Shown here: positions 4,112-64,000 of the stretch, one piece after another
Position numbering within the stretch: the first letter of the stretch is position 1
Layout: every line of letters begins with the position of its first letter
Origin: an uncultured Poribacteria bacterium
Lineage (GTDB): Bacteria; Poribacteria; WGA-4E; WGA-3G
DNA: 64,000 nt
Direction: 5' to 3'
Assembly: GCA_958296135.2 (NCBI GenBank)
Contig: CATQHZ020000001.1
Coordinates: forward strand, 512,001 to 576,000
Position numbers and translations under genes: made by a program
The notes under the pieces: model-generated
Told to the model about the DNA's origin: nothing
Database searches by the model: none
The model's input: only the letters and a program-made list of their open reading frames with translations

Positions 4112-4340
4112 TATCGGGACCGGGATGTCCCTCCTACTGTCGAGACCAGAGGTCTCTCCTACTGAAGATGTCGGGACAAGGATGTCCCTCCTACTGTTCG
4201 AGACCAGAGGTCTCTCCTACTGAAGATGTCGGGACCAGATGTCCCTCCTACTGTCGAGACCAGAGGTCTCTCCTACTGAAGATGTCGGGACAAGGATGTC
4301 CCTCCTACTGAAGTATCGGGACCCGGTGGTCGCGCCTACT
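4112..4340. repeat. Tandem array of a second REP-like family (GTAGGAGGGACATCC..GTCCCGA / GTAGGAGAGACCTCTGGTCTCG on the minus strand)
   Basis: Alternating tcgggac..ggatgtccctcctactg and cgagaccagaggtctctcctactgaagatg units, ~58-60 bp period. Confidence 0.88.
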
Positions 4341-4414
4341 GAGTTGTGGGCGGGCTGGTGTGCCCGCCCGTGTGTTCGGTTGTCTGAATTCAGACAGTTC
4401 CGAAGGCGGATTGC

Positions 4415-10024: not shown

Positions 10025-10206
10025 GGCACGGCGAGGGACAGGTTTTCCGCGTCCGATGGCATTGCGTAATTCTCAGCATGGCGAGGGACAGTGGACATAT
10101 CTGCAGCGAGGCGGCAGAGATGACAAAGTTTCGGCGTAACGGCCCTCGCCCTACGGTGAAAGGAACGCTTAAGGCATGGCGAGGGACAGGTTTCTCGGGC
10201 CCTACG
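10025..10206. repeat. REP-like cluster between smc and the DHS-like gene, including a copy with the 50-nt insert
   Basis: ggcgagggacag... copies at ~10030, 10080 and 10178; 10078-10154 carries the CATCTCTGC..GCAGA hairpin module. Confidence 0.8.
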
Positions 10207-10224: not shown

Positions 10225-13200
10225 TTAATCTGAAAACTTCGCTGAGACGAGTTTGGAGACACCGGCCTGCTCCATCGTTACGCCATACATTACGTCGGCG
10301 ATTTCCATGGTGCGCTTGTTATGAGTGATAATGACGAACTGCGTATTCTCGGCGTAGGCGCGGATAAGATTCGTGAATCGGAGGACGTTCGCCTCGTCCA
10401 GCGCGGCATCCACCTCGTCCAACACGCAGAACGGGCTCGGCTTGATTTTGAAAACGGCAAACAGCAGTCCAATGGCGACGAGGGAGCGTTCGCCGCCGGA
10501 GAGTTGCGTGATGCTCTGGGGCCGTTTGCCCGGTGGCCGGGCGATAATCTCAATGCCGGTATCAAGCACATCGGATGCGTCGGTTAACAACAGTTCTGTC
10601 TCGCCGCCGCCGAAGAGTTGCACGAAAACTTCTTGGAAGTTCGCCTGCACCTTCTCAAACGTCTTGAGAAAAACGTCGCGCGAAGTCTGGTTAATCTTCT
10701 GGATGGCCTGATAGGTAGATTGGATGGACTTTTCGACATCGGCGCGTTGCGCGATGAGGAAATCGTAGCGTTCCTTATGCTCGGCGTGTGCCTCTATTGC
10801 CTTGAGGTTCACCGCGCCCATCGCGCCTAATTCCGCCTTCAACGCTTCGATCTTGTCCATCAGATCGATTTCTGATAGTTCGCCGTGCGTTCGGATAGGT
10901 ATCTGGTGTCCTGACGTTTCGCTCCGTAATGCGTCATCGGCGGTGTCGATGCCTCTGTTTTTGACTGCCCTTGAAGCGGCGAGGGTTTCAATGGAGACGT
11001 GGTATTTATCAAGGACGCGCGTTGAGATGGCTTTTATCTGCATCTCCAGTTGCGTTGTCGTTACTTCCAATTGATGCCGTTTGCGGTTGTGCTTCTCGAA
11101 CTGCCGCCGGGTTGCACGCATCTGCTTTTGGAGGTGCGTCACCTCTTCGAGGAGCGCGTTCCGTTCTTCCGTGAGTGCGTCAAGTTCGGCTTCTGCCTCT
11201 GCCTTATCGCCTTCGTATCGGAGGAATTCGCGTTGTGCGCCGGCAATTTGTTCCCCGAGGTCTACCCTGGTTTGTTCATCGGTGTCAATAATCGCTTGCT
11301 GTTGCGTGATATTCTGCGTTGTGCGCAGGAGCGTTTCCTCAAGCGTCTGCAACTCCGATGTCAACCCGTGCAATTTTTGACGCTGTCCGGCCAAGGAGAT
11401 TTCCATCTCTTGACAGCCGTTTGCGACTTCGTCGTGCTTGCGGCTTTCACTGTCGAGCTGCTCGGACATGCGTTGGATACGCCGTTCGGTGATGGTTCGC
11501 TTCTTGTCCAAGTCGGCGATTTCTGCTGCGAGCGTCTGCTGTTCCTCGCGCGAGCCTGCTACTGCCTGGCGGAGTTCCCGATTCTCCACCTCTACTTCGG
11601 CGAGTTGACGTTCTAGCCTTTCGACGTGGCGGCTTGCCTGCTCAATGTCCTTCGTGAGCGCGGTCTTCTCAATTCGCTTATCTTGCCATTGCGCGGTGAT
11701 TTTCTGTCGGTTCTGCTGCAAAGTCACCAATTTCGCGGCGAACGCTTTGCGGTTGGCATCCTTCTCGGTGGCAGTCTGCGTCAGTTGTCCGATTTTTCCT
11801 TCCAGCAGTTCAAGTTCGCGCGAACGGCTGAGCAACCCGCTCTTTTTCTGGTTAGCGTGCCCGCCGGTGATGGCTCCCGAGGTGTTAATCACTTCGCCAT
11901 CTAAGGTGACGAGGCGCGCTGTCGGACGGAATCGGCGTGTGAGGGCGACTGCGGCATCCAAATCCTCGATGACGAGGGTATTGCCGAGCAGATGCAACAC
12001 TGCTGTGTCATATTTTTCGTCGTAATCCACCAGATCTTCGGCGACACCGATGACACCGGGTTCGTCCAGGAGTGCGTCGTCGGCAAACTGTCTGCCCCGC
12101 AAAATGTCAAGTGGGAGGAATGTTACGCGTCCGGCGCGGTGCTTTTTGAGGAATGCGATGCCGGTTTCTGCGTCTTCGGCTGTTTCCGTGACGACATTTT
12201 GAATGGCACTGCCGAGTGCGACTTCAATGGCGATTTCGTATTTTTTATGGGTGGTGAGCAGTTCGGCGACAACGCCGCACACTCCTGCGAATTCATCGGG
12301 GTAGTGGGTTTTCGCCTGCATGATGGCGCGTACCCCGGTGTAGTATCCTTCGTAAGCGGATTGCAATTCCTGCAAGGATTTGAGTCGGGATACGTTCATG
12401 CCGAGTGTGTCTTGTAACCCGCGCATGTCGGCTTCTGCCTTGCGGAGTCTATCCTGAGTCTCGCGAATCGCGGTTTCTACGTCATTTTTCTCTGCTTCAA
12501 TCTGAAGGAGTTCCGCCTTCAGTTGCACTTCGGCGCGTTGTGCCTCGGTGTGTGCGTCGGTGGCGGTTTTGAGCTCCACCTTCACTGCCGCCGAGCTTTC
12601 CTGAATGCGGCTGAGGTTGTTCTCCGTATTCTTGACGCTGTGTTCGATTGCGAGGCGTTTGTTCTCGCGTTGCGCGAGGAGGGTTGTGGTATCGCGCAAG
12701 ACGGTTTCGGCATCCTGGACGGTTGCCTTTGCCTTCGCGATGCGCGCGGCTAAGTCGGTAAGGAGCTGCTGGCGCGCCGATAAGCGGCTTTCCTCAAGTT
12801 TGAGGGATGCTTCCAATTTGCTCCGTTCTCGCGTCCGTTCGCGTTGCTGCGTTGAGAGGCGTTCCTGCTGTGCCTTTAAGGATTCAAGCGTTTGGAGTGC
12901 GCGCTGCCGCTGCTGTTGAATGTTCAGCTGGCGTTCTTTGTGCAGAACTATCTGCCGTTCAATTCTCTCAATCTGCGCCGAGATGCCGCGGAGCGTCTCC
13001 TGCGCAGCAGTTATCGCGGTGTCCAATTTCGGGCGGCGGCCAGACGCGCTCTCAATCCGTTCTTCCGCGTTTTGCAGCAGTTCATCTGCCTCGGCGACGT
13101 TGTCCAGCACGGCGTTTAACGTGTCTTGCGTTTCGCGATACTCGGCGACAAGTTTCTCGTATTCGCGCTGTGAGAGGTTCAACTCTAATTGTTGCAACTC

Positions 13201-13910: not shown

Positions 13911-14050
13911 CCTACAGGCCTCGCGAGGGACAGTGGACATCTCTGCAGCGAGGCTGCAGAGATGACAGCGTTTCGGCGTGACGGCCCTCGCGCTACGGGG
14001 CCGCGGTGTCTTCAGGCATCGCGAGGGACAAGTTTCCCACGCGCGACGGG
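13911..14050. repeat. REP-like cluster between comF and smc
   Basis: tcgcgagggacagtggacatctctgcagcgaggctgcagagatgacagcgtttcggcgtgacggccctcgcgctacgg (13921-13999) plus a degenerate copy. Confidence 0.8.
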
Positions 14051-14136: not shown

Positions 14137-14919
14137 TTAGGTGCGTGCCAATGTCAACACGTCAATTTCGGCCGGGTCTGCCTTCCACAATTCCTTGACG
14201 GCTTCATGGACGGTCGCGCCGGTGGTGAAAACGTCGTCAATGAGCAGGAGGTGTTTGCCAAAGATAGCGTCTGGCTTCCGCATCTCAAACGCGCCAGTGA
14301 TATTCTCTTGGCGGGCTTCCCGCCCGGTAAGGCTACTTTGCGCTTTCGTATCTTTTTGGCGGATGAAGATATCCGTAGCAACTGGCACCCCTTTCGCCTT
14401 GGCAATGCCGTCGGCAAGCAGCATGGCCTGATTAAACCCTCGTTCGCGCAACCGATTTTTATGAATCGGTATGGGTAAGATGAAGTCGTAATCCTCAATT
14501 CGGCAATCCTCAGGCAGGTGTGCCAGCATCAGTTGTATGCAAGGTTTGGCGAGTCCGGTTCGCTTTTCAAATTTAAAGAGGTGTATCGCCTGTCGGAGGG
14601 TTGCCTCATAGAAAGCAATCGTCCGGAGCTTTCCGTAGCGTGGGGGTTTACGTGCGCATTCATCGCAGAGCTCTACCTCGGTCGAGGCATCGCGAGGGCC
14701 AGGCCCTCGCGCTACGGGGGGCGTGTGGAGCGGTGTGCCACATATTTCGCACCAAGGGGGTTCCACAAACTGCATTTGCTGCCAGCATTCATCGCAGAGG
14801 TAAGGCACTGTCTCAAGTCCGAGCGGCGTATCGCAGCTTCGGCATTGCGCGGGATAGAGGCATATCAGTGCGGTTTCAAGGGCCTGCTGTAGGGACGACA
14901 GGTGTGGGAAACGTCTCAT
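14137..14919 (-). CDS. comF: ComF family protein (zinc ribbon + phosphoribosyltransferase domain)
   Basis: YPAQCRSC..CDEC..CEIC..CDEC, RLRERGFNQA, LLIDDVFTTGAT; start set at MRRFP. Confidence 0.88.
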   Translation of the reverse strand: MRRFPHLSSLQQALETALICLYPAQCRSCDTPLGLETVPYLCDECWQQMQFVEPPWCEICGTPLHTPPVARGPGPRDASTEVELCDECARKPPRYGKLRTIAFYEATLRQAIHLFKFEKRTGLAKPCIQLMLAHLPEDCRIEDYDFILPIPIHKNRLRERGFNQAMLLADGIAKAKGVPVATDIFIRQKDTKAQSSLTGREARQENITGAFEMRKPDAIFGKHLLLIDDVFTTGATVHEAVKELWKADPAEIDVLTLART

Positions 14920-14944
14920 AAGGCAATAACCTTTGCGGCGAACG

Positions 14945-15100
14945 AACGCGAGGTTTTCGCGCGATGGGGGCCGTGGCGATGAACGAGCGCGAGGCACAGG
15001 ACCTCGCGCTACGGTTGAAAGATGGGGGCCGTGGTGTTCAAGCATCGCGAGGTTTTCGCGCTACGGGGGCCGGGGATTTTGTCTGCGCGCTACGGGGCCG
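14945..15100. repeat. REP-like cluster upstream of comF
   Basis: gcgcgaggcacaggacctcgcgctacgg and cgcgaggttttcgcgctacgggg variants. Confidence 0.7.
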
Positions 15101-16033: not shown

Positions 16034-17329
16034 TCACGCCCACCCCTGGCTCTCACCACCGACGCGCGCGAGGCTGATTTTCTCGTAATAGCCGCTTTTC
16101 CGATACGCTGTCAACGGGTGCGGGTCGCGCCCCATCTCCACGCGCACCTGCTCTAGCAGCGGGTTCACATCCGTTTCATACGCGCGCTGGAGGATGCTCT
16201 CCGCTTCAATCAGAGCGGCGGCATCCTGGGCGGCTACCAATGCCTCCCTATCTACCAGCAGTGCCTTCGCGTACGCTTTTTGCAGGTTGCAAACGGATTG
16301 GATACTCGCCTCGACCTTGGGTTTCAGATTGTGACTCTGATCGATCATGTAAGCGATTTTTTGTTGTTCGCGAGGCGTTTGATTAGGGTTATTGGAGTGA
16401 CCGACGTTTCTCTCCGTATATCTGTCATCAACGTTGTTGCTGACTACGTTGCTGGGGGCCAACTCTGCCGCGACGAGTTCCGTGTAAATCAGGAAGAGCT
16501 CCTGCGGATTGATAGAACCTACCGTCAGATCATCGTCGGCATATTTTCGGCAGTTGAAATGGAAACCGCCGAGTTTCCCTTCGTCGATGAGGTAAGCGAC
16601 GATGCACTCGATGTTAGTGCCTTGCGGGTGATGTCCCAGGTCTACTAGTACCTGTGCTTGCGGGCCGAGTTTCTTCGCCAGTAGGTAGGCGGTGCCCCAG
16701 TCTGCCACATCGGTGTGGTAGAATGCAGGTTCAAAGAATTTATACTCGATTAGCATCCGCGTGGCAGGCGGTAGTGCGTCGTAAACCTCGCCGAGTGCTT
16801 CTTCCATCCATGCCTTGCGCTTCCGAAAGTTCGCCTGCCCGGGGAAATTCGTGCCATCGGCGAACCACAGGCTGAGTAAATCCGATGCGGTTTTCTGCAT
16901 GATGTCCACGCATTCAAGGATATGTTCGATGGCGAGGCGGCGGACATCGGGTTGCGGATTACAGACGCTTCCGAGTTTATAGCCCTGGTCTTGGAAAACG
17001 TTTGGGTTAATCGCGCCGATGCCGATGCCGACATCCGCGGCGTATGCTTTCAATGCGCCCCAGTCGTCTGTCTTATCCCACGGGATGTGGAGTGCGACGG
17101 TAGGCGCGATGCCGGTGAATCGGTGGACGGTGGCTGCGTCTTCGAGCCGTTCGGCGGCGTTTCGTGCTGCGCCGGGCTGTTCAAACACTCCGAATCGGGT
17201 GCCGGAATTCCCGTAGCCCCACGATGGTGTTTCAATGTGTTGCTGTTTGAGGTGCGATTTGACTGCGTCAATATCGATTCCTTGTCCGGCTAGCGTTTCG
17301 GCTAATAGGTTATAGGCTGGACTACTCAT
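16034..17329 (-). CDS. rhaI: L-rhamnose isomerase (RhaI, xylose-isomerase-like TIM barrel) with an extra internal loop
   Basis: [61 protein letters not shown]. Confidence 0.88.
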
Positions 17330-17496: not shown

Positions 17497-17534
17497 TTGA
17501 CATGCATAGAAATTTTTGGTATAATTCATGTTAA
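17497..17534 (+). promoter_or_regulatory. Promoter of TA pair 1 with overlapping inverted repeat (candidate operator)
   Basis: TTGACA(17497)-N17-TATAAT(17520); TTGACATG...CATGTTAA inverted repeat. Confidence 0.75.
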
Positions 17535-17554
17535 AAAATTGAGGAGGTATCGCG

Positions 17555-17812
17555 ATGAGTTTGACACTGACTTTAACAAAAGAGCAGGCACTCGATTTGC
17601 TCTACCAGATGCCGCCGGAAGAGAAGATGGCAGTCTTGGTTGAAATGGCAACGCAAGCGCGCGAAGGGCACGAAGCACGGAGGCGGCACCTCCACTCCAA
17701 GGTTCGGCAGCTCTGTGCGAAACGCGGGTTGGATTGGGATGCAATGGGCGAACAGGAACGCGAGGACTTTATTGACGCTATTGTCCACGAGGACCGGGCA
17801 TGCAGCCAATAG
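17555..17812 (+). CDS. Putative type II antitoxin (copy 1)
   Basis: 85 aa, RBS GAGGAGG, overlaps the downstream PIN gene by 13 bp. Confidence 0.75.
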   Translation: MSLTLTLTKEQALDLLYQMPPEEKMAVLVEMATQAREGHEARRRHLHSKVRQLCAKRGLDWDAMGEQEREDFIDAIVHEDRACSQ

Positions 17813-18207
17813 TCGTTTACGATACGAATATTCTGATATCGGGGATGGTTTGGGGTGGAAAACCGTATGGCTGTATCGCGCTCGCGCAGCACGGGAAAGT
17901 TAAAGGGTTAACCTGCCCGGAAATCCTTTCCGAATTCTCGGAAAAACTGACAATCAAGTTTGAACAGTCTGTCTTCCAAACAGAGAAAATCGTGTCTGAA
18001 CTTCTCAGTTTCCTTGAAAGCGTCAGAATTACGAACCTGCTTACCGGTGCCACCACCGATGCCGACGATAATAAGGTGATAGAATGTGCCGTTGTCGGCG
18101 GTGCGACGCACATTATCAGCGGTGACCGGAAACATCTGTTACGGCTTGGGAGTTATCAGGACATCCTTATCGTCACGGCCGCGGATTTTCTGGCGCAGTT
18201 CGCGTAA
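17800..18207 (+). CDS. PIN-domain (VapC-like, PIN_3 type) toxin (copy 1)
   Basis: IVVYDTNILISG, E(F), DADDNKVIECAV..ATHIISGDRKHLL. Confidence 0.9.
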   Translation: MQPIVVYDTNILISGMVWGGKPYGCIALAQHGKVKGLTCPEILSEFSEKLTIKFEQSVFQTEKIVSELLSFLESVRITNLLTGATTDADDNKVIECAVVGGATHIISGDRKHLLRLGSYQDILIVTAADFLAQFA

Positions 18208-18228
18208 TCTCCCTGGCTTATTAACGCG

Positions 18229-18265
18229 AAACGCGCGGGCATTGCAAATTGCCCGCGCGTTTTTT
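18229..18265 (+). terminator. Rho-independent terminator after TA pair 1
   Basis: aaacgcgcgggca-ttgcaaat-tgcccgcgcgttt followed by a T-run. Confidence 0.75.
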
Positions 18266-18490
18266 GCTTGCGATTGGAAAAAACTTGCACTCTTAATCGA
18301 CATCGTGTAGAATTGCCAGAAAAGACAAAATAAATTTGCATTATTTTAAGACAGGGGTGCCGGCTGTCATTCTACCGCAGCAGTGGATGGTTGATGAACG
18401 TCAGCAGGCGGAGAGGCATCATGGTGGCGAGCAGATTCGGTTGATAGATTGACGTTTTTTCCTAGTCATTCAGCATCCTTGATATTTTGC

Positions 18491-18528
18491 TTGACATGGA
18501 GAGAAACTTTTGGTATAACTCATGTTAA
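18491..18528 (+). promoter_or_regulatory. Promoter of TA pair 2 with the same inverted repeat
   Basis: TTGACA(18491)-N17-TATAAC(18514); TTGACATG...CATGTTAA. Confidence 0.72.
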
Positions 18529-18549
18529 AAAAATTGAGGAGGGATCGGC

Positions 18550-18807
18550 ATGAGTCTGACACTCACCTTAACAACCGAACAGGCTATCACGCTGCTGGAG
18601 CAGCTACCGCCGAGAAAGAAGATGGAGGTCCTCATCAAATTGTCAGAGCAGGCGCACGTGGGACACGAAGAACAGATGCGCTATGGCGAATCCAAGGTTC
18701 GGCAGTTGTGTGCGAAACGCGGGTTGAATTGGGACGCAATGAGCGAACAAGAACGCGAGGACTTTATCGATGATATTGTCCACGAGGACCGGGCATGCAG
18801 CCAATAG
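18550..18807 (+). CDS. Putative type II antitoxin (copy 2)
   Basis: Paralog of 17555..17812; C-terminal half nearly identical. Confidence 0.75.
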   Translation: MSLTLTLTTEQAITLLEQLPPRKKMEVLIKLSEQAHVGHEEQMRYGESKVRQLCAKRGLNWDAMSEQEREDFIDDIVHEDRACSQ

Positions 18808-19202
18808 TCGTTTACGATACGAATATCTTGATATCGGGGATGATCTGGGGTGGAAAACCTTATGACTGCATCGTGCTCGCGCAGCAAGGCAGCGTTGAAG
18901 GGTTAACTTGCGCTGGCATTCTTGGCGAATTTTCGGAGAAGTTGCTCACCAAGTTTGAGTATTCCGAGAGTGAAACTGCGGGGAGAGTTGAGAGGCTTCT
19001 CGGTTTTCTGCGAACAGTTAAAATTACCGATCGGCTTGAGGGTGCCACCACCGATGCCGACGATAATAAGGTGATAGAATGTGCCGTTGTCGGCGGTGCG
19101 ACGCACATTATCAGCGGTGACCGGAAACATCTGTTACGGCTTGGGAGTTATCAGGACATCCTTATCGTCACGGCCGCGGATTTTCTGGCGCAGTTCGCGT
19201 AA
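18795..19202 (+). CDS. PIN-domain toxin (copy 2)
   Basis: Same PIN motifs; last ~53 aa identical to copy 1. Confidence 0.9.
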   Translation: MQPIVVYDTNILISGMIWGGKPYDCIVLAQQGSVEGLTCAGILGEFSEKLLTKFEYSESETAGRVERLLGFLRTVKITDRLEGATTDADDNKVIECAVVGGATHIISGDRKHLLRLGSYQDILIVTAADFLAQFA

Positions 19203-19223
19203 TCTCCCTGGCTTATTAACGCG

Positions 19224-19261
19224 AAACGCGCGGGCATTGCAAATTGCCCGCGCGTTTTTTT
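19224..19261 (+). terminator. Rho-independent terminator after TA pair 2
   Basis: Same hairpin as 18229-18265. Confidence 0.75.
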
Positions 19262-19448: not shown

Positions 19449-21386
19449 GTGTTAATTAAAAAAATGCTTGACTCAACCGAAAAGTTCATGCCATTTCATG
19501 GCGTGTCAGACACCATCGATGCTACCGCCTGGGCGTTACCTGATGGTGCGATGGCCCGATTAGGCCGCGGCAGCGTGCGCGCCCTGGCAGTTTCGCCCGA
19601 TGGCAGTCTCCTTGCTGTCGCCACCAAAATCGGGCTCTGGTGGTATCACCTCGCTACGATGTCTCCGCTCGCCTTGTGGGAGACAGAACGGGGGATGGTT
19701 TCTACCGTCTCGTTTTCCGCCGATGGACAATGGGTTGCTACCGGCAACGATGATGGTATTGTCAAGGTATGGGCTCTGGCTGAAGGTGTGTGCATCGCGG
19801 AGATGGCACGCCAGACACAGGTGAGACAACCTGGGGTTTCCCAACTCGCCTTCTCGCCAGATTCCCAACGTCTCGCTGCAACCGGTATCCGCGACGATAA
19901 GGTTGACGTATGGCATCCACAAACCGGCGAACAGGGCGCAAAATTCTACGATACCCAAGTCGAATTGCGGGGCCTCACGCGCCCTGTCGCCTTTTCCACC
20001 GATAGTGACTTGCTAGCCTGTACGAATTCCGAAGGCATTCCCGGTACAACTCACTCTATCTCGGTATGGAATTTAGCGGCAGAGGACTGCATCGCCTGCC
20101 TCACCGAACCCACTGATTTTGTGCAGAGCCTCTGCTTTTCACCGTGTGGGAGGTACCTTGCCGCCGGTGGGTATCAAGGCACGGTTTGGGTGTGGGAGGT
20201 GAAGACCTGGCAGCAGCACAAGGCGAATAGAGATTATGGTGAGTCTCGTGTGAGCGTCTCCTATTCGTCAGCGGGGGTTCTCCATGCTACAGCGGTGTCA
20301 GAAGATACCGCTGTCGTGTGGGACGTGGAACGTGACGAAAGACGTTGTACATACGTTGAAGCGCAGGGGAGCCTCCACGGCGTGCATTTTTCACGCGGTG
20401 CCCAGTTTGTCGTTGCCGGCGCACGTGAGTGGACGGTGTGGACAGTTGGGAACCCACAGCCGCGCAAGTGCCTTCATTCCCATACGGCCTTCCCTGACTC
20501 CTTGGTATGCTCGCCTGATGGCAGAACGCTAACGGCCGGGTCCTGGCATGATGGCGTAAAGGTATGGGATATTGCAGCGTCTGCGCAGCATCCGATCTGT
20601 TTCAAACTGCCCGGTAAAAACCATTATGTTTCTGTGTCCAACTGCGGCAACTTTCAGGCGACTGGCATTGACGAAAACACCATCAAAGTATGGGAAGTTG
20701 GAGAAACCGCGCCGTTCCTTACGCTTAAGCCCTCGGAGAAAACGGGGGAGGTATCAGCAGCAGCACTCTCGCTGACAGGGAATCTGCTGGCATACGGAGA
20801 TAGCAACGGCACCCTGTCTGTGTGGGATGTGCGGTGCCAGGAATATCTACACTCGCTCACGGCGCATAACGGTTGGATTCATTCGGTGGCATTTAGCCCG
20901 AATGAAAAGTGTCTTGCGAGTCTGAGGCAAGATGGCCCCGACACCCGGTTGTGGGATGTTGAAAACGGTGAAGAAATTGGCGAGTTTCCTGACAGCACCA
21001 ATGCGATAGCGTTTTCGCCTGGTAGTGACGTGATTGCCTGCGGCATGGCAAAAAAGATTCTGTTGTGGGATGTTAACCGTTGTGAAACTTTCATGACACT
21101 CTGTCACGCTCAGCAAAGTTGGTGGCCGTTTGCGTTGGCCTTTTCGCCGTGTGGACGGTATCTGGCTTCTGGTGCCTGGTGGCACCGCGGTATGGGAATA
21201 AAAAAGGTCGCGATTCGATTATGGGAGGTTGCGACAGGTGAAAATATCGTCACCTTCCGGGGACACCCTACCGATGTCCAATGTCTCGCCTTTTCACCGG
21301 ATGGAACACTTTTGGCAAGTGGCAGTTATGACGGCACCATCCTCCTGTGGGATGTGAAACCTTACTTGCAAAATGAAACTCCATGA
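19449..21386 (+). CDS. WD40-repeat beta-propeller protein (start uncertain)
   Basis: WALPDGAMARLGRG lead-in, many AFSP..LA.G..D..V.VW repeats, final GHPTDVQCLAFSPDGTLLASGSYDGTILLWD. Confidence 0.88.
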   Translation: MLIKKMLDSTEKFMPFHGVSDTIDATAWALPDGAMARLGRGSVRALAVSPDGSLLAVATKIGLWWYHLATMSPLALWETERGMVSTVSFSADGQWVATGNDDGIVKVWALAEGVCIAEMARQTQVRQPGVSQLAFSPDSQRLAATGIRDDKVDVWHPQTGEQGAKFYDTQVELRGLTRPVAFSTDSDLLACTNSEGIPGTTHSISVWNLAAEDCIACLTEPTDFVQSLCFSPCGRYLAAGGYQGTVWVWEVKTWQQHKANRDYGESRVSVSYSSAGVLHATAVSEDTAVVWDVERDERRCTYVEAQGSLHGVHFSRGAQFVVAGAREWTVWTVGNPQPRKCLHSHTAFPDSLVCSPDGRTLTAGSWHDGVKVWDIAASAQHPICFKLPGKNHYVSVSNCGNFQATGIDENTIKVWEVGETAPFLTLKPSEKTGEVSAAALSLTGNLLAYGDSNGTLSVWDVRCQEYLHSLTAHNGWIHSVAFSPNEKCLASLRQDGPDTRLWDVENGEEIGEFPDSTNAIAFSPGSDVIACGMAKKILLWDVNRCETFMTLCHAQQSWWPFALAFSPCGRYLASGAWWHRGMGIKKVAIRLWEVATGENIVTFRGHPTDVQCLAFSPDGTLLASGSYDGTILLWDVKPYLQNETP

Positions 21387-22638: not shown

Positions 22639-22761
22639 GACATCGTGACGGTCGCGATGTGTCTCATGCGTGGGCTGCCTGTCGCCAGCGCCAGCTGGCA
22701 CGCGCTCAGCACAACTCAGAAGGCGTGTTAACCCATGAACCACAACGAAGAACCTCCCTTG

Positions 22762-23440
22762 AACCGTAGCGCGAGGGCCTGTCCCTCGCGATCCTTCGAT
22801 CGACACGGAAAACGGCTGCAGCTCCGAGGCCGCGGCCGCTTTCTGATGAGATCGCTGCATGGCGAGGGACAGGCCCTCGCCCTACGGTTTAAGAGGCGTT
22901 TTCTGCAACGACCGAGACATGGCGAGGGGAACCCTCGGCGATTCGCGATCGCCGGGCCCTCGCCCTACGGTTTAAGAGGCGTTTTCTGCAATGACCGAGG
23001 CATGGCGCGGCACAAGACCGCGCCCTACGGGTTAAGAGGCGTTTTCTGCAACGACCGAGGCATGGCGAGGGACAGTGGACATCTCTGCAGCGAGGCTGCA
23101 GAGATGACAACGTTTCGGCGTGACGGCCCTCGCCCTACGGGTTAAGAGGCGTTTTCTGCAACGACCGAGGCATGGCGCGGCACAAGCCCTCGCCCTACGG
23201 GTTAAGAGGCGTTTTCTGCAACGACCGAGGCATGGCGCGGCACAAGCCCTCGCCCTACGGTTTAAGAGGCGTTTTCTGCAACGACCGAGGCATGGCGCGG
23301 CACAGGACCGCGCCCTACGGGCCACGGGGCGTTTTCTGATGAGATCGCTGCATGGCGAGGCACAAGACCGCGCCCTACGGGTTAAGAAGCGTTTTCTGCA
23401 ATGACCGAGGCATGGCGCGGCACAAGACCGCGCCCTACGG
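22762..23440. repeat. REP-like tandem array with ~60-bp units
   Basis: Repeated ttaagaggcgttttctgcaacgaccgaggcatggcgcggcacaag(c/a)cc.cgccctacgg; some units carry the 50-nt or 24-nt loop inserts; no unique spacers. Confidence 0.9.
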
Positions 23441-24442
23441 TTTAATCGGATGCGCTGGCACCTTCGTCGCCGCGGATTCGTAAATCAGATCCATCAGTTC
23501 GGATTGGATGATGCCGTTCATCGGAGTGGTGCGCGGCTCAGCCCTGCCCAAAATGGCATCGATGAAGTTGTCATCCGGGTTGCCGGCGTTCATATCCTCG
23601 GTGATGGGCGGCGGATCCAACGCTTCATTGCCTTTCCAGACGCGAATCCAACCACCACCCCAACCGTCAACTTCAATGCGGCCGTTGTCGAAGACTAACG
23701 CCATGTGCGTGCCGCCGGGGCTCGGACAATTGCCGCTGACAGCCATCGCCGCCAGTACGCCGTTTTCAAATTTGACGTTAATCGACGAATTAATGTCCAC
23801 CTCCCTGCCTTGGTTATCGGTAAAAGCGTAGACTTCGGCGACGTTGGATTCCACTGCCCAGCAGAGGCTATTGAGGAGGTGCGCGCCGCTATCATACGCC
23901 TGTCCACCGCCGGAGAGTTTCGGGTTCTGCCGCCATGTGCCTGTCGTGCCGCCCTTCCAGCCTTGCGTAATATAACCGATGACCAGCTCCAATTTCCCCA
24001 GTTCGCCGCTACGGATAGCCTCGCGAATGTAGTAGAAATTCGCTGTGCAAGGGGTGTTGTAGCCGATAGTCAACACTAACCCGGTTTCCTTGACCTTCTC
24101 GGCGAGGGTGTAGGCCTCCTGCGAAGCGGTGACCATGGGTTTTTCCATCAGGACGTGGCACCCTGCTTCGAGTGCTTGCATTCCCTGCTTGAAGTGCAAG
24201 GTATGCGGCGTGGAAATGACGACAGCGTCCGGTTTCGTTTCGGCGAGCATCATTGCGATGTCGTCGTAGGCACCGGGCCGCGGCCCCAGGTCTGCCAGAT
24301 TTCTGTCGATGTATGCGTTGGCGATGTCGGTATTGACATCGCATGTGCCGACGATTTGGACATCGGGGTTTGCGTTCATGCGCCGTGCGTGGCCGGAGGA
24401 GTTTCCGCCGCAGCCAATCATGGCGAGCCGAATTTTAGACAT
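23435..24442 (-). CDS. Gfo/Idh/MocA family oxidoreductase
   Basis: IRLAMIGCGG, PDAVVISTPHTLH, HVLMEKPM, SGGGQAYDSGAH. Confidence 0.92.
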   Translation of the reverse strand: MSKIRLAMIGCGGNSSGHARRMNANPDVQIVGTCDVNTDIANAYIDRNLADLGPRPGAYDDIAMMLAETKPDAVVISTPHTLHFKQGMQALEAGCHVLMEKPMVTASQEAYTLAEKVKETGLVLTIGYNTPCTANFYYIREAIRSGELGKLELVIGYITQGWKGGTTGTWRQNPKLSGGGQAYDSGAHLLNSLCWAVESNVAEVYAFTDNQGREVDINSSINVKFENGVLAAMAVSGNCPSPGGTHMALVFDNGRIEVDGWGGGWIRVWKGNEALDPPPITEDMNAGNPDDNFIDAILGRAEPRTTPMNGIIQSELMDLIYESAATKVPAHPIKP

Positions 24443-25826: not shown

Positions 25827-26478
25827 AGGGATCTCCTTCAAAGTGCGCGGAAACTTCTGCCCATGGGATATCGTGTCCGGTCCTGTCGTCAAACACGATG
25901 GGCATTCCGTTTTCGTCCAAGTTCAGGATGCCTTTGTTGATGTCATAGAAACTGAAGCTGTATCCTTCGGGCGGTGGCTTGAGCCCGTATTGCCCGTAAA
26001 ACTCTCTATCGGATTGCTTGATAAATTGTTGTCGCTGTTTGGGCGGCAACATATCCATGTTAATCCCAACGACGCTTAGATAGTCTAGTTGTCGTTGTGA
26101 GAGTTTTTCGGGGTGGAATCCGTCTCTTTTCAGCGTCTGGTTGAGTTCCTCGATTTCGCTATCGGTGAGGCGCTCGGAGATATCCACATCGGTGGTTGTG
26201 ATTCCTGTGGACATATCGCCACTGGTGAGCCATTCGTCACCGTTTGAGGTGTTGCTTTCGTCTTGTGCGACGACTTGTACCTCATGGGGTTCGGCGTGCC
26301 ATTCTCCGTCGTGCCAGTGGCCGGCGGTTTCGGTTTCCGCTCGGGTCTGCTGTTGCACGACGGGTGGTTTCGGTAGCGATGCATCGAACTTGCGTTTCTG
26401 CCATTCTCCCCAAAAGTAGAGGCCGGTGCAGAAAGCGACAAGGAGTATCGCGCTGGTGGTGATTTGTCTCAGAGACAT
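25813..26478 (-). CDS. N-terminally anchored hypothetical protein with GHWH motif (cassette 1)
   Basis: RBS AAGGAG; TM helix; GHWHDGEWHAEPH; first ~40 aa shared with 26913..27566. Confidence 0.8.
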   Translation of the reverse strand: MSLRQITTSAILLVAFCTGLYFWGEWQKRKFDASLPKPPVVQQQTRAETETAGHWHDGEWHAEPHEVQVVAQDESNTSNGDEWLTSGDMSTGITTTDVDISERLTDSEIEELNQTLKRDGFHPEKLSQRQLDYLSVVGINMDMLPPKQRQQFIKQSDREFYGQYGLKPPPEGYSFSFYDINKGILNLDENGMPIVFDDRTGHDIPWAEVSAHFEGDPYVQK

Positions 26479-26668
26479 GAGTTCTCCTTTTGCGCGCTCG
26501 TGGCGCGCGGTTGGTAAACGTTATCTAATCTGATTTTATTAGCACACGCTTTTTTGTCAAGTTTTTTTAAGACAGTTTCGTGTGAGTGTCTTAAAAACAC
26601 TTTCGCAACTGCATATCAAACTTTCAGGGTGCATCGAGACGCGGGAGGGCTCTCCTACCGACGTTGTT
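26361..26668. repeat. ~308-bp direct repeat copy 1 (REP + promoter + first ~40 codons)
   Basis: Near-identical to 27449..27757. Confidence 0.9.
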
Positions 26669-26916
26669 CAGGTAGCGCAGGTAACACTCGTGTTACCGCT
26701 TGCTGAGACCAGGAAGTGGTCTAACCAAAAATGAGCACTCTGCGTTTTTTCTGCAACATCTAAAGCTGTCTCCGTTCGATCTAATTGCAGTTGCGTAGTA
26801 CGGAGCGTAGTACGGAGCGTAGTGCTTTGCGAATCACAAGGCGCGGTGAATGCGTCACCGGTTGCAAGCGCGAGGAGCGCGAGAATGAAGATGGGGAGAT
26901 ACAAGGTGTTTTTCAT
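26668..26916 (-). pseudogene. Secreted protein gene, apparently truncated at the repeat boundary
   Basis: ATGA overlap with the upstream stop; signal peptide MKNTLYLPIFILALLALATGDA; ORF stops exactly where repeat copy 1 begins. Confidence 0.55.
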
Positions 26917-27566
26917 TGTTCCTCCCCCCAGATTTCGGCCTGTGGTGAGCCCGGGTCTTCTGCCAGGTGTGCTTTCCACCTTTCATGCCAAGCGTCAAAC
27001 TTTCGTTGCAGTGCCTCTATTTTTTCAACAATGGCCTGCCGCTCTTCAAGTGGGAGGCTTTGAGCCTGTTTGACAAATGCCGCGTACTCGTCTGGGTCGG
27101 GTGGGAGAAGTGCGTCCTCCTCTCGCCATAAGAGTTTCTGTTCCGCTAAGAGTCTCCAGTATTTTTCCGACCATGCGGCGTATTTGGGTGCGTAGCGCGC
27201 CATGTTTTGGACGGTTCGCAACGCCTCGGCGTATTCCGGGGTTGCGAGCATTTCCTCTATGGCTGCATCGGTTACTGGCTCGCTGATTATCGGCCCGCGC
27301 AGGTCGGCGAAGTGTATGCCTTCGTCGAGGACTGCATCGGCGGGTTGTTGCGGTTCGGCGGGTTTTCCATCGCCGTTGTGCCAGTGGCCGGTGGCGACAT
27401 CCTCGGTGACATCGCCGGCGACATCGGTGTCCTGCTGTTGTTCAACAGCGGGTGGTTTCGGTAGCGATGCATCGAACTTGCGCTTCTGCCATTCTCCCCA
27501 AAAGTAGAGGCCGGTGCAGAAAGCGACAAGGAGTATCGCGCCGGTGGTGAGTTGTCTCAGAGACAT
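26913..27566 (-). CDS. N-terminally anchored hypothetical protein with GHWH motif (cassette 2)
   Basis: MSLRQLTTGAILLVAFCTGLYFWGEWQKRKFDASLPKPP, GHWHNG, then an unrelated helical C-terminus. Confidence 0.8.
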   Translation of the reverse strand: MSLRQLTTGAILLVAFCTGLYFWGEWQKRKFDASLPKPPAVEQQQDTDVAGDVTEDVATGHWHNGDGKPAEPQQPADAVLDEGIHFADLRGPIISEPVTDAAIEEMLATPEYAEALRTVQNMARYAPKYAAWSEKYWRLLAEQKLLWREEDALLPPDPDEYAAFVKQAQSLPLEERQAIVEKIEALQRKFDAWHERWKAHLAEDPGSPQAEIWGEEQ

Positions 27567-27757
27567 GAGTTCTCCTTTTGCGCGCTCGTGGCGCGCGGTT
27601 GGTAAACGTTATCTAATCTGATTTTATTAGCACACGCTTTTTTTCTCAAGTTTTTTTAAGACAGTTTCGTGTGAGTGTCTTAAAAACACTTTCGCAACTG
27701 CATATCAAACTTTCAGGGTGCATCGATACGCGGGAGGGCTCTCCTACCGACGTTGTT
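27449..27757. repeat. ~308-bp direct repeat copy 2
   Basis: Near-identical to 26361..26668. Confidence 0.9.
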
Positions 27758-29821: not shown

Positions 29822-29861
29822 TGACATTAAAAAAGTTATCCAAGGCATGTAGTCATCGCCG

Positions 29862-31268
29862 TTGGCGATGACGGCTTACGCAGGGAGAACTGCTTTGCCA
29901 AGAAAACCGTTATCGAACGCCTCGCGAATGACGAAAACGGCGATGACGGCTTACGTAGGGAGAACTGCTTTGCCAAGAAAACCGTTATCGAACGCCTCAC
30001 GACTGACGAAAACGCGAAAACAGACATACCGCGCCTTATTTGGCTCATTGGTTTTCCATATCGGCTTGATGTTAGTGGTATCGCCGTTCCTCGTGAACCA
30101 TCTCCGCGAAACGAAGGAGAGCATCTCGGTTGAGATACTCAAGCCGGAACCGGCGCGGCAGCGGCCGCAGCGCGTGCTGCGGCAACGTCCGCCGGTGACA
30201 CCACAGGTTGCCAATCAAGGAGAAGCATCTCCAGCTGCGCCAGCTGCGCCGACTTATGCGCCCCAGGTCAGCGCGCCGAAAGCCCCGCAGCACGCGGATG
30301 TTGCCCCGGAGGTAGTCACGCACGCCGAGATTCCGCAGACAGACGCGCCCGCTCTCCCCAATGCCAGTTTTGGCGAAGGAAAGACAGCGGCGGGTCCGGT
30401 TGTCATTGAAGGCGCGCAGGGCGCAGGATACGGCGGCCCCGGTGGGCATGGCACCGGAGGCAGCGGCAGTGGGAACGGCATCGGGGGACGCTTTATCAAA
30501 GGCACGCAGGCAGAAGAACCGGGGTTAGTCGATATTCAGAGTACGAGCGCGGGACTTGGCATTTTTGACACTGCGGTGCTGCCGGGACACGGGTTAACCG
30601 CCGAGCTCTACGTTCTCGAAGGTGCGTCCGCAAGTTTCTCTGTTGATGTCAATGATAAACGGGTGCTACATCTCCGCAGCGGGCCCATTTCGATGATGCC
30701 TAACTTTGAACTTTTGACACCTGTCTATACGTTTGTGGCAGCAAACCTAGATGTGCCGCCGCGCGCCTATACCGAGGGGTTTTCCACGCCACAGCTGGAG
30801 AGTATCACCGAGGATTTCGCTATCCGCTTTCGTGGGGAATTGGCTGTGGATACGCCGGGGGAATGGATGTTCGCGCTTTATTCGGATGACGGCTCAAAGT
30901 TGTTCATTGATGGACAACTCGTTGTTGATAACGACGGTATTCACGCACCGCGGCTTGAAAGGGGCCGTGTGAAGTTAACAGTAGGCAGGCATCCGGTTGA
31001 GATTCACTATTTCCAAGGCCCGCGGCACACTATCGCTTTGCAATGGTTCTATACGCCGCCAAACGGATTTCCGGAGGGCGAAGACCGGCATTCTCAAAGC
31101 CAACGGTTCACAAGCGGATTGAGAAATTCCTTTCATTATTCGCTCAGTACCTCTGGACGGATTGTTCCGCCGGCGCTTATCTATTCTCCTGGCAAGCCTC
31201 GCGTCCCGGATGCGCTGAAGAAGTTGCAGCAGCGGCTTCGCGAGGTTAAGGACGAAGAAAAACGTTGA
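29862..31268 (+). CDS. Membrane-anchored protein with Pro/Gly-rich linker and C-terminal PA14 domain (start uncertain, N-terminus repeat-derived)
   Basis: TonB-like anchor LFGSLVFHIGLMLVV..ISVEILKP; PA14 FAIRFRGEL..PGEWMFALYSDDGSKLFIDG..VVDNDGIH..GRHPVEIHYFQG. Confidence 0.82.
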   Translation: MAMTAYAGRTALPRKPLSNASRMTKTAMTAYVGRTALPRKPLSNASRLTKTRKQTYRALFGSLVFHIGLMLVVSPFLVNHLRETKESISVEILKPEPARQRPQRVLRQRPPVTPQVANQGEASPAAPAAPTYAPQVSAPKAPQHADVAPEVVTHAEIPQTDAPALPNASFGEGKTAAGPVVIEGAQGAGYGGPGGHGTGGSGSGNGIGGRFIKGTQAEEPGLVDIQSTSAGLGIFDTAVLPGHGLTAELYVLEGASASFSVDVNDKRVLHLRSGPISMMPNFELLTPVYTFVAANLDVPPRAYTEGFSTPQLESITEDFAIRFRGELAVDTPGEWMFALYSDDGSKLFIDGQLVVDNDGIHAPRLERGRVKLTVGRHPVEIHYFQGPRHTIALQWFYTPPNGFPEGEDRHSQSQRFTSGLRNSFHYSLSTSGRIVPPALIYSPGKPRVPDALKKLQQRLREVKDEEKR

Positions 31269-41717: not shown

Positions 41718-41851
41718 TGAAATGTTCCTTTTGTGCGCAGTGAATTGGGGCACTATGAGTTCGCGGGGACAGGCCCCCGCGCTACGGTTCTCACCGGTAG
41801 GCGCGATTTCCGAATCGCAACTGCCCAACACCTCGCGTTCGGCGCTCATGC

Positions 41852-45986: not shown

Positions 45987-46289
45987 TCGCGTGTAATCAT
46001 CGCGAGGGACAGGTTTTCCCTCGCGCTACGGGCAGACAAGCCGCCTAAACCTCGCGAAATAATTAGTTCTTCTCGCGTGTGAGCATGGCGCGGCACAGGA
46101 CCGCGCCCTACGGGCACGCGAACTGATTTTAGGTTATTTTTCTCGCGTGTAATCATCGCGAGGGACAGGTTTTCCCTCGCGCTACGGGCAGACAAGCCGC
46201 CTAAACCTCGCGAAATAATTAGTTCTTCTCGCGTGTGAGCATGGCGAGGCACAGGACCGCGCCCTACGGGCACGCGAACTGATTTTAGG
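45987..46289. repeat. Two tandem 156-bp units, each containing two REP-like palindromes
   Basis: Copies start at 45987 and 46143; contain atcgcgagggacaggtttt.cctcgcgctacgg and atggcg.ggcacaggaccgcgccctacgg. Confidence 0.88.
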
Positions 46290-47151: not shown

Positions 47152-47307
47152 GTAGGAGAGACCTCCCGGTCTCGATTTTCAACATATCGGGACAGGGATG
47201 TCCCTCCTACCGAAGATATCGGGACAAGGATGTCCCTCCTACGGAAGACATCGGGACAGGGATGTCCCTCCTTCGGAAGACATCGGGACAGGGATGTCCC
47301 TCCTACG
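47152..47307. repeat. REP-like array (family 2), 32-bp period
   Basis: gtaggagagacctcccggtctcgat (47152), then atcgggaca(g/a)ggatgtccctcct(a/t)c at 47186, 47218, 47250 and 47282. Confidence 0.9.
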
Positions 47308-48088
47308 GCAAATATTCACCCGGTATGCGCGACATCGGGTAGTTTGCATCGGCATCCCGATTGGCGACGGGCCCGGGAATCTCGTTATCCCAATAGTCGG
47401 GGACGGTATTCGGGCGGCTGTGCCATGCGAGGATCAAGGTGCGGCGCACATCGGTATAGTTTTTGTAAGCGGAGTGCAAGATACGCGCGTCCGCCAGCAC
47501 GAGAGAACCCGCCTTCACACAGACATCCACCTGGTCTGGATGATTGCTGAACATGACGGGGTGGTTTTCTTCAATAAACCGCGCCCCCTGTTCATGCGCC
47601 GGTACTAAGATGTCGTGCAAATCGATGCGCTTGCGATGCGAGCCGGGGATCACCTTGAGACAGCCGTTTTCCGCTGTTGTATCGGTGAGATAGTAGTTGA
47701 GAAAGATGGTTTGCGGCCAGGGGGCGCAGCTGAGCGGGTCATTCCAGCGCATCCAGTCTTGGTGCCAGTAGAGTGCTGGTGCGCCCGGGTCTTTCGTCAA
47801 GATGATAATTCCGCCGGCTGTTGTGAAATCCCCGAATCCGATTTGTTCGAGTGCGTCGCGCGAGGGTTGCCATTCCAGCAATTTCTGGATGTGCGGGTTA
47901 TCTTCGCCGCGGACGTTGACGTGCTGTCCTTGATAAATCACATCGTCGGGTTGCACGTGTCCATCGATGAGGCGTTCGGATTCGTCGCGGAGTTCCTGCA
48001 AGAATTCCCCGGTCAAAATATCGTCAATCACGCAGTAGCCGTCGTGAAGCATTTGCTCCCGTTTTGCTAAGGCGATTTCAGGTGTCAT
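47303..48088 (-). CDS. PhyH family dioxygenase
   Basis: HDGY, YWHQDW, YLTDTTAENGCLKVIPGSH, ARILHSAYKN. Confidence 0.88.
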   Translation of the reverse strand: MTPEIALAKREQMLHDGYCVIDDILTGEFLQELRDESERLIDGHVQPDDVIYQGQHVNVRGEDNPHIQKLLEWQPSRDALEQIGFGDFTTAGGIIILTKDPGAPALYWHQDWMRWNDPLSCAPWPQTIFLNYYLTDTTAENGCLKVIPGSHRKRIDLHDILVPAHEQGARFIEENHPVMFSNHPDQVDVCVKAGSLVLADARILHSAYKNYTDVRRTLILAWHSRPNTVPDYWDNEIPGPVANRDADANYPMSRIPGEYLP

Positions 48089-57624: not shown

Positions 57625-57699
57625 TCTTTTGTTGTTCGCAAGGCGTTCGGGTACGTCTCCTTACGTCAATCCGTCATCGACGTTGTCGATGACTAGGTT

Positions 57700-58302
57700 G
57701 TGGATTCGACATTGAAATATCAAACGGTGGCTGGCATTGCCGATGCCAAACATGTTATTAAAAAATCGCGGTTCTTCGGTGAGGCGACAGCAGTGGATAG
57801 CATGGAGGCAGTGAAAGCGTTTCTCGGCGAAGTGCAGGCGAGATATCCGAAGGCCTCGCACTACTGTTACGCTTACAGCATCGGCAGTGGCTCGGCGCAG
57901 CGCGATTATGCCACCGATGCAGGTGAACCGACGCATTCCGCGGGGCCTCCCATTCTCGCTGCAATTCAGGCGAATGGGTTGTCCAACACGCTCTGTGTGG
58001 TTACGCGGTATTACGGCGGTATCAACCTCGGCATCGGCGGGTTAATTCGGGCTTACGGGCAGTGCGCGCGGGCATGCCTCCAAAATGCGACGATTGAAAC
58101 CCGTATCGCTTATCAGGACTTACGTTTAAAAGTGTCTTATTCGCACATCGGCATTGTCGTCAATCGATGCAAACGGCTGGGCGGCACTGTTGTCAAGATT
58201 GACTGGGTGCCGGAGCCGCTCCTCACGGTTCGCCTTGGGCGCAGTGCAGTGGAAACGTTCCTGTCGCAACTTCAAGGCATTGCAAACCTCGCAAACCTGT
58301 AG
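57700..58302 (+). CDS. yigZ: YigZ/IMPACT family protein
   Basis: IKKSRF, ASHYCYAY, DAGEPTHSAGPPIL, VVTRYYGGINLGIGGLIRAY. Confidence 0.92.
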   Translation: MDSTLKYQTVAGIADAKHVIKKSRFFGEATAVDSMEAVKAFLGEVQARYPKASHYCYAYSIGSGSAQRDYATDAGEPTHSAGPPILAAIQANGLSNTLCVVTRYYGGINLGIGGLIRAYGQCARACLQNATIETRIAYQDLRLKVSYSHIGIVVNRCKRLGGTVVKIDWVPEPLLTVRLGRSAVETFLSQLQGIANLANL

Positions 58303-59369: not shown

Positions 59370-59409
59370 TTTTTGTTTTTCGCATTTTTTGTTTTTCGCA
59401 TTTTTCGTC

Positions 59410-59998
59410 TTTCGCAATGCGTTCGGCGATGGTTTCTTGCGCCGACAACGTTCACTTACCAGGCCGTCTTGACGTTGTCAAGACTTGCCTAACTGTTAAC
59501 ACGACGATTCGGTTGTCACATTTCTGTCGGTTGCGTTCGCTCTGTCGCAAACAGGGCAGAAACTGTAAAACTTGATAAAGCACCGTATGCGGATTGAGAA
59601 AATAATCGGTTCATTTTGGCGGCGGATAGAGACATCCGCTCTTACAGGCAGGTGCAGCGGGCGCGCAGACTGCCCACAGGAAAATTGTCCGATTTCATAT
59701 TTTTTGTTTTTCGCAATGCGTTCGGCGATGGTTTCTTGCGCCGACAACGTTCACTTACCAGGCCGTCTTGACGTTGTCAAGACTTGCCTAACTGTTAACA
59801 CGACGATTCGGTTGTCACATTTCTGTCGGTTGCGTTCGCTCTGTCGCAAATAGGGCAGAAACTGTAAAACTTGATAAAGCACCGTGTGCGGATTGAGAAA
59901 ATAATCGGTTCATTTTGGCGGCGGATAGAGACATCCGCTCTTACAGGCAGGTGCAGCGGGCGCGCAGACTGCCCACAGGAAAATTGTCCGATTTCATA
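59410..59998. repeat. Tandem duplication with 299-bp period of a hairpin-rich non-coding unit
   Basis: 59410-59699 vs 59709-59998 differ at two positions that I could see (59552 C/59851 T; 59587 A/59886 G); preceded by 16-bp T-rich repeats (tttttgtttttcgcat). Confidence 0.9.
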
Positions 59999-63861: not shown

Positions 63862-64000
63862 TCGTCAAGCCGGATGCCGTAGTACGGTGGGCTTGTTCCC
63901 CCACATTCGTTTCCAAAGACATGGAAGAAAAGACAACCACATTAGCCAAGTCACAGCTGACCAACCGCTAGGAAGAACAAAAAATGCGTTTCATTGCTGT

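Follow-up and report, generated by a model that had tools for sequence, protein, structure and literature searches.

A hairpin-headed repeat of Poribacteria with its tail end at start and stop codons

A repeat of ~100 bases, present in ~300 copies in a Poribacteria bacterium of the sponge-symbiont type, is best read as a selfish element. What chiefly marks it is polarity: sense copies have their tail end at start codons and antisense copies at stop codons, and the hairpin end does not lie there. The repeat was noticed in a preliminary description of a 64-kb stretch of this genome (the window), which missed this main feature, the position of the tail end at start and stop codons together with the ability of the element to supply translation signals.

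The five sites named there, including rhaI, smc and an intergenic site, align over ~85 nt. To avoid circularity, a hidden Markov model (HMM) was trained on 85 copies that all lie outside the window. It recovered all five sites (E-values of 2e-16 to 2.4e-11, 39–56 bits, compared with a maximum of 10.3 bits across 20 shuffled windows) and added two further window copies, the second members of the pairs at the PA14-domain and methyltransferase genes (Table 1). Iterated searches of this genome (G000) yielded 209 matches at E < 0.01, every one on contig C1, and none at that threshold in the reversed genome. A model built from three genomes gave 218 type-A matches, and the union with a sister subfamily comprised 318 copies in G000: 199 of type A (CGC-N3-GCG core), 66 of type B (CCGCWAGG core) and 53 unassigned. 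Gene calls in G000 are codon-model calls made in this analysis. Contigs C2–C4 contain no copy of the repeat; they differ from C1 in GC content (37%, 67% and 60%, compared with 54%) and are possibly mobile or mis-binned DNA. The repeat was not found in phages, plasmids or viral contigs, and a literature search, with subscription journals and supplements outside its scope, found no published description of it.

Table 1 Copies of the repeat, their parts and other GTAG repeats in the window
Feature	Positions	Strand	Evidence
Type-A copy, in frame in rhaI	16358..16462 (HMM 16360-16455)	-	Orthologue alignment, covariance-model match, HMM
Head of rhaI copy, REP-like: GTAG 16447-16444, 9-bp stem and 3-nt loop 16444-16424	16424..16447	-	Sequence, covariation
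Tail of rhaI copy: core CGC-N3-GCG (16377-16369) and A-rich end	16357..16380	-	Sequence, conservation
Host gene, L-rhamnose isomerase, P. stutzeri type, 431 aa	16034..17329	-	PDB 2hcv, E 3e-102; fold match
Type-A copy, in frame, variable smc loop	10868..10964 (HMM 10875-10964)	-	HMM, orthologues
Type-B tail, CCGCTAGG core, AGGA Shine-Dalgarno-like, ends at smc start codon	13859..13920	-	
Type-A copy, start of PA14-domain gene, first of tandem pair	29834..29937 (HMM 29847-29936)	+	HMM, orthologues
Second tandem copy at PA14 gene, 5′-truncated	29936..30012 (HMM 29936-30011)	+	HMM, orthologue comparison
Antisense copy, 19-nt spacer deletion	57626..57708 (HMM 57627-57704)	-	HMM, orthologues
Copy at start of methyltransferase gene (58374-59417)	59402..59490 (HMM 59403-59482)	-	HMM, orthologues
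Second methyltransferase-leader copy, from 299-bp tandem duplication	59701..59789 (HMM 59702-59781)	-	HMM
Type-B tail ending at ATG	63930..63989	+	
Second GTAG REP family, window sites	248-1544, 10074-10170, 13916-13999, 14692-15028, 22751-23505, 46088-46283, 48192-48419		
Third GTAG REP family, window sites	4118-4341, 47172-47308		

Several window copies differ in presence between relatives. The type-B copy at the smc start is full-length in the sister species G001 and G002 and missing from G004, G007 and G012. The antisense copy, whose tail end lies 2 nt from the stop at 57624, takes the place of the native start region of a UPF0029 gene; it is common to G001 and missing from G002, G004 and G012. 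At the methyltransferase gene, duplicated tails follow the first copy, and G001 has a single copy abutting the ATG. Upstream of this gene lies a 299-bp tandem duplication (59394–59991, 98% identical), which is recent since it is missing from G001 and G002. A copy at 59410–59490 had been taken as the start of the 299-bp unit; the copy is real, but on its own strand the element ends the unit, and there are two copies. Contigs of four sequencing runs (one sample, possibly the source of the assembly) span the rhaI and smc inserts without differences. The window also contains 126-nt coding repeats, presumably WD40-like (2271–3956 and 21297–21355), 66-nt coding repeats (39633–44045) and two local gene duplications (17533–19260 and 26347–27656, 995 and 1088 nt apart).

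Read on the GTAG strand, the element has a ~12-nt lead and GTAG, followed by a 9-bp stem capped by an AAC loop; after this hairpin come a spacer, the core and an A-rich end. Its extent is ~100 nt rather than the ~80 nt first proposed, with the lead 5′ of GTAG weakly conserved. GTAG and a hairpin had been placed correctly on the opposite strand, but the ~55-nt tail is not conserved throughout: conservation is confined to its last ~22 nt. The spacer, the middle ~42 nt, is ~50% identical among paralogues and 40–44 nt long in 77 of 84 G000 copies. All 30 copies fetched from genome G050, out of 48 sharing an identical 26-nt head, have a spacer of 39 or 40 nt, at a mean pairwise identity of 0.47. 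Per-base conservation of GTAG in G000 is 67–87%. In this genus (g1), GTAG directly precedes a perfect 8–9-bp stem with a 3-nt loop; copies in genus g5 have a stem with an AA/GC mismatch. The type-A core reads CGCAAGG on the reverse strand, which is the top-strand core of type-B and g5 copies. Palindromy over the whole length is absent, with one 9-bp hairpin and a 3-bp stem only, as are terminal inverted repeats, the two ends being different. Copies occur singly or as direct tandems joined at short A-rich overlaps, and occasionally as back-to-back pairs.

The stem covaries, with 37 cells altered on both sides, a number reached in none of 500 shuffles. To call the stem changes largely compensatory was nevertheless an overstatement: of the 174 altered pairs in 84 copies, 62 are still Watson–Crick, 32 have become G-T and 80 are broken, and many of the double-sided changes are probably inherited subfamily variants. 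Covariation is limited to this first hairpin. A candidate inner stem in the spacer proved weak at best, all column pairs lying within the null and the folding energy barely below that of shuffles, and an extra CGTA/TACG pairing was dropped, being paired in 72% yet showing little covariation. The ncRNA-like character once attributed to the repeat found no backing in Rfam 15, a search of which returned no covariance-model match. Twelve orthologous copy pairs diverge less than flanking fourfold sites (0.79–0.82 compared with 0.66), a figure biased because only recognisable copies were scored. Together with the near-invariant spacer length, this slow divergence hints at a constraint unexpected for decaying selfish DNA.

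The polarity is evident from the 265 copies with a located core. The tail points toward the start of a sense gene in 139 and toward the end of an antisense gene in 40; a further 32 copies lie within a sense gene and 3 within an antisense gene, and for the other 51 no gene is called ahead of the tail. The bias is far smaller in two other REP families of the same genome (533:414 and 287:240). Stop codons were chosen as the test of polarity because they are independent of start prediction. Of 51 stops that face the tail end, 20 lie within 5 nt of it and 10 at a distance of more than 20 nt, compared with 9 and 65, respectively, of 96 stops facing the hairpin end. About 20 further genes run into the tail and stop at fixed positions within it. 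At gene starts, 51 of 198 type-A copies have an ATG 9–16 nt beyond the core, where the control gives 26.5; for type B the count is 36 of 67 against a control of 6.5. Of the start-facing copies, 38 of 133 have an ATG after the A-run, as do 3 of 33 antisense and 4 of 28 in-gene copies. A replication-strand bias was rejected: most 250-kb bins have copies on each strand, with no relation to GC skew. The hairpin with its T-run is flagged as a terminator on the reverse strand, but the T-run is equally common across all context classes, and an antisense terminator is not supported as the cause of the orientation bias.

The element also carries translation signals. Among genes without an ATG just after the tail, 34 of 53 have an in-frame ATG or GTG inside the element (2 and 4 in the other frames), compared with 8 of 81 genes that keep their ATG (Fisher p 4e-11). 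The median Shine-Dalgarno (SD) energy of these internal starts is −5.2, against −5.9 for the genome. As this excess is partly definitional, a gene needing a start, orthologues were examined. The native start codon of fmt is lost in G000 and G001 and a stop lies shortly upstream, so the start must be inside the element; in G012 an independent g5-type tail abuts the native GTG. For der, the SD and ATG kept in G001 are replaced by the element in G000. The orthologues thus confirm for fmt and der that the element supplies the start codon where a gene has lost its own. At the PA14 gene, the ATG of G002 is ACG in G000, which again places the start inside the element. Native starts of conserved housekeeping genes have accordingly been replaced in one lineage, judging from these orthologues, and with the native start replaced, selfish DNA becomes indispensable without any benefit being needed. 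For annotation, the element accounts for start codons called in the wrong place and for unusual peptides at the N-termini and in loops of Poribacteria proteins.

The signals differ between forms. Type-B and g5 tails have an AGGA-type SD (type-B median −4.2 kcal/mol), and type A has an internal signal, a GGAG-like motif with an ATG or GTG, ~35 nt before the tail core. Type-A tails have no SD, the median duplex energy before 35 native ATGs being −0.1 kcal/mol compared with −5.9 genome-wide, and buffering is therefore no explanation for type-A genes with a native ATG. ATG or GTG follows the tail in 31 of 58 g5/f3 loci. The reverse strand carries stop codons, and in antisense g5 copies the TTA of the tail is the stop of the gene in 4 of 30 and 3 of 30 loci (two locus sets). 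Among copies with a native ATG, an internal open reading frame stops near that ATG in 1 of 35 of type A and 7 of 27 of type B, and one ATGA overlap was seen by eye at G000 3255797. A mobile promoter was rejected, TTGACA and a −10 box at 16–18 nt being present in 2 of 265 copies only.

A strict pattern matched 16 loci in 185,579 species genomes, all of them Candidatus Poribacteria. The covariance model had matches in 25 of 61 relatives (65 candidates scored per genome), with many copies in the three genomes that represent this genus and in 14 of the 15 from genus g5. The g5 head was present in 49 of 55 g5 genomes and in 3 of 25 from another family; the number of near-identical hairpins ranged from 0 to 106 per g5 genome. 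Of the 18 sites in G000 that a g5-copy model finds, 13 are known copies, and the two forms are therefore linked. Filled and empty alleles were found at orthologous sites in fmt, der, carA and others. This presence and absence, together with the range from 0 to 106 copies between sister species, supports the earlier view of an old, hairpin-bearing, mobile repeat. Many g5 species retain a copy at carA, with different hairpin variants in different species at the same site. In three g5 carA leaders (L410, L418 and L424), other sequences are inserted in or just after the hairpin, and spacer and tail are intact.

To follow individual sites, 113 G001/G002 sites were compared with G000: 48 were empty, 28 filled or decayed, 28 without orthologue and 9 duplicates, a few of the 48 "empty" sites containing decayed copies. 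Inspected by eye, 8 of the 48 junctions coincide with a start codon and 7 with a stop codon, the others lying within genes, upstream of a retained SD, or being unclear. Target DNA was replaced in 46 of the 48 alleles, with short overlaps in 2, and there was usually no target duplication. No junction motif was visible by eye in the 48 alleles, and at these old sites the right junctions, also judged by eye, showed no preference for breaks between C and T or between C and A, the cleavage sites of TnpA-REP. Insertion is inseparable here from later deletion because the orthologues are 80–90% identical and intergenic DNA is heavily turned over.

The RAYT/HUH gene flanked by the repeat that the preliminary description envisaged did not appear in any of 105 fetched Y1/RAYT loci (a subset of the Y1 matches, some overlapping); five contained one stray copy, ~500 nt or more away. 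The search used PF01797 in G000, G001, G002 and 61 relatives, 51 of which had a Y1 match, and, for eight g5 genomes with high copy numbers, RAYT proteins. Other REPs flank the two intact RAYTs of G000 (C1 near 3734500 and 4791200), and a local Y1 profile run over all six frames of G000 added one RAYT fragment, 17 kb from the nearest copy. No autonomous partner (hairpin, open reading frame, tail) was seen among 32 strict hairpins in G000.

These searches also brought up other mobile sequences. A second GTAG REP family, in arrays with ~1000 pattern matches genome-wide, flanks the RAYT at C1:4791155 (L002), and a third, with ~640 pattern matches, flanks that at C1:3734478 (L001). Locus L084 of G002 resembles L002 in its right flank and has an L001-type RAYT with yet another REP family, a possible REPtron swap. 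A truncated RAYT, the N-terminal part only, lies beside a single REP at C1:3058888–3059190, and L083 of G002 is an IS200/IS605-like element with a broken Y1 tnpA beside a long open reading frame, which we take to resemble tnpB.

Our preferred account, which we hold with moderate confidence, is that of a REP-derived, non-autonomous selfish element, moved by a RAYT in trans, with loss of tail-side DNA and selection for working signals. Movement by a RAYT is inferred because the head matches both described types of TnpA-REP substrate. A RAYT/TnpA-REP (HUH) enzyme encoded elsewhere would recognise GTAG and the hairpin on single-stranded DNA and, through cleavage followed by strand transfer, move or patch the element. 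Tail-side DNA would disappear during insertion or later, as far as the next coding boundary, and selection would retain those copies whose built-in signals keep the gene working, so that the element would be self-buffering. The weak point of this account is that none of the 105 Y1/RAYT loci is flanked by the family; the incomplete conservation of GTAG, the junctions without C/T or C/A preference, the type-A tails without an SD and the signs of constraint on spacer and copies also speak against it. REPs within 15 nt of a stop codon are reported to stall ribosomes (cited in PMC5082802). The tail keeps the hairpin ~65 nt from the codon that it abuts, a distance that may matter for such stalling. 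How REPs spread is described as a still open question in PMC8266576; with many datable filled and empty sites and a REP-type head joined to a polar tail, REP-type movement is testable here.

It is rather unlikely that the repeat is instead a functional, portable 5′ leader like Neisseria REP2, with a stabilising hairpin, a ~42-nt standby spacer and a ribosome-binding end, which spread and was kept for setting or regulating the expression of many genes, the in-gene and antisense copies being by-products. The excess of copies facing gene starts (139:40), the ATG or GTG after more than half of the g5/f3 tails, the SD of type-B tails, the fixed spacer length, the retention at carA in many g5 species and the slow divergence of orthologous copies (biased toward the recognisable ones scored) would all suit a leader. 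Yet the same exact junction is made at stop codons in antisense; type A, the commonest form in G000, has no SD in its tail; a promoter is all but missing from the 265 copies; and the host genes are unrelated, with sister species freely gaining, losing, duplicating and eroding copies.

Spread without a HUH enzyme is unlikely. The element would then have been spread by gene conversion or microhomology-guided recombination between its A-rich ends and equally A-rich gene starts, or else through a recombinase or transposase of another kind. No cognate RAYT was found, target DNA is replaced and targets often resemble the element ends (rhaI, smc, mnmG), tandems are joined at short A-rich overlaps, and different hairpin variants occupy one carA site across species, all of which such a route could produce. 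It does not account for a GTAG and stem of one or other known TnpA-REP type being kept across genera, or for junctions at stop codons and within genes that have no A-rich target; RAYTs are, moreover, common among the relatives (a Y1 match in 51 of 61 genomes).

We think it quite improbable that landmarks of translation, and not a DNA target sequence, guide integration, the tail end being joined exactly at start codons (sense) and stop codons (antisense) with no shared target motif. A HUH enzyme might, for example, act where the edges of transcripts covered by ribosomes leave DNA single-stranded, and the hypervariable spacer of fixed length might serve as a measuring arm from recognition hairpin to junction. 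If this were true, a mobile element would be reading gene boundaries and rewriting ribosome-binding sites and N-termini genome-wide.

Copies within genes are mostly sense (32 compared with 3 antisense), the sense copies are in frame, and length differences between orthologues are all multiples of 3 (81, 69, 99, 102, 69, 27 and 12). Mean hydropathy is −0.9 (hydrophilic) for the sense frames and +0.5 (hydrophobic) for the antisense frames. In rhaI, 102 nt stand in place of 21 nt in the loop before the MIDQSH strand. The ~27-aa insert reported earlier is correct as a net gain of 27 aa; it consists of 34 codons replacing a 7-residue loop, and the peptide quoted for it had 31 aa. The strand that follows carries the aspartate equivalent, by alignment, to D327 of the solved enzyme (D327N entries). 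In TIM barrels, loops of such position face away from the active site. The loop is not one that RhaI orthologues share: of 41 genomes searched, 39 have rhaI, and the insert is in two, G000 and G001. Their match is unbroken, those of the other 37, including the congeneric G002, are split at the insert, and in 29 of the 30 fetched rhaI loci that were parsed the 102-for-21-nt replacement is confined to these two genomes. In a structural model the insert (residues 290–323) is unstructured, with a pLDDT of ~30, which is weak evidence because the model mean is 58.7; a single-sequence fold with a pLDDT of 38 was set aside. Between G000 and G001, 12 of 34 insert residues differ, compared with 23 of 397 in the rest of RhaI, and 12 of 13 base changes in the insert are non-silent; at the sequence level, the insert peptide is not conserved. 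Fourfold sites differ at 1 of 9 positions in the insert compared with 74 of 176 elsewhere, a small sample.

The SMC insert has been reduced to its two ends, 69 nt shorter, in G001 and G002. The same SMC loop has longer, unrelated inserts in two other genera (L186 and L187), g3 (with GTAG-type repeats) and g6, and is likely to be a hot spot for in-frame insertions. Domestication in enzymes, as first proposed, is unsupported, given mostly non-silent change in the RhaI insert and erosion of the SMC insert in both sister species. The inserts in RhaI, SMC and ~30 other proteins are best explained as tolerated loop passengers, and the rhaI insert by itself is an ordinary RPE-like passenger. That the repeat is a structured, ncRNA-like sequence domesticated as a functional peptide or RNA module is very improbable: the first hairpin covaries, 32 copies lie in frame within genes and the rhaI insert is common to two species with few fourfold differences, but Rfam has no such family, the spacer has no supported pairing, and the RhaI insert is unstructured in the model, changes almost entirely by non-silent substitution and is missing from 37 of 39 RhaI genes.

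The REP-derived selfish element that we prefer can be set against known small repeats. Like the GTAG REPs that accompany RAYT/TnpA-REP (PMC8266576, PMC3733652), it has GTAG at the 5′ foot of the hairpin and is present in hundreds of copies, some of them intragenic. Group-3 REP-Sm is described with GTAG directly before a perfect stem and a 3-nt loop, and E. coli group-2 REPs with an AA/GC mismatch in the stem (PMC8266576); the perfect 8–9-bp stem and 3-nt loop of g1 copies correspond to group 3, the mismatched stem of g5 copies to group 2. In contrast to these REPs as there described, the Poribacteria repeat has a ~65-nt tail of fixed length, occurs in singles and direct tandems rather than inverted dimers (BIME/REPIN), lies mainly upstream of start codons rather than downstream of genes, and, unlike a REPtron, flanked no RAYT among the 105 Y1/RAYT loci. 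It differs from a MITE in having neither terminal inverted repeats nor, usually, a target-site duplication, target DNA being replaced.

Mycobacterial MIRUs, in the accounts cited (PMC12548453, PMC3184786), are likewise small repeats, inserted at start codons in the direction of transcription, whose reading-frame signals limit damage. The Poribacteria repeat lacks their tetranucleotide direct repeats and regular −4 translational coupling; it replaces target DNA, abuts stop codons in antisense and has a REP-type head. Neisseria REP2 and Borrelia IR-A/B, as outlined in PMC3184786, share with it a stem-loop, the lack of terminal inverted repeats and, as far as its type-B and g5 copies go, a ribosome-binding end just before unrelated genes; REP2 is stated there to be unrelated to REPs. 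The Poribacteria repeat differs from both in having no promoter (2 of 265 copies), a terminal ATG that is mostly that of the host gene, ~10 times more copies, and intragenic and antisense locations. The Rickettsia RPE (PMC10969869, PMC3733652) resembles it as a repeat-encoded peptide inserted in frame in unrelated housekeeping proteins, but the Poribacteria repeat is no ~150-bp palindrome, and ~12% of its copies (32 of 265) are in genes, gene boundaries being the main sites. As it departs from each of these families in a defining property, we class the Poribacteria repeat as a variant among REP-derived small repeats, one that unites features shown separately by MIRU, REP2 and RPE.
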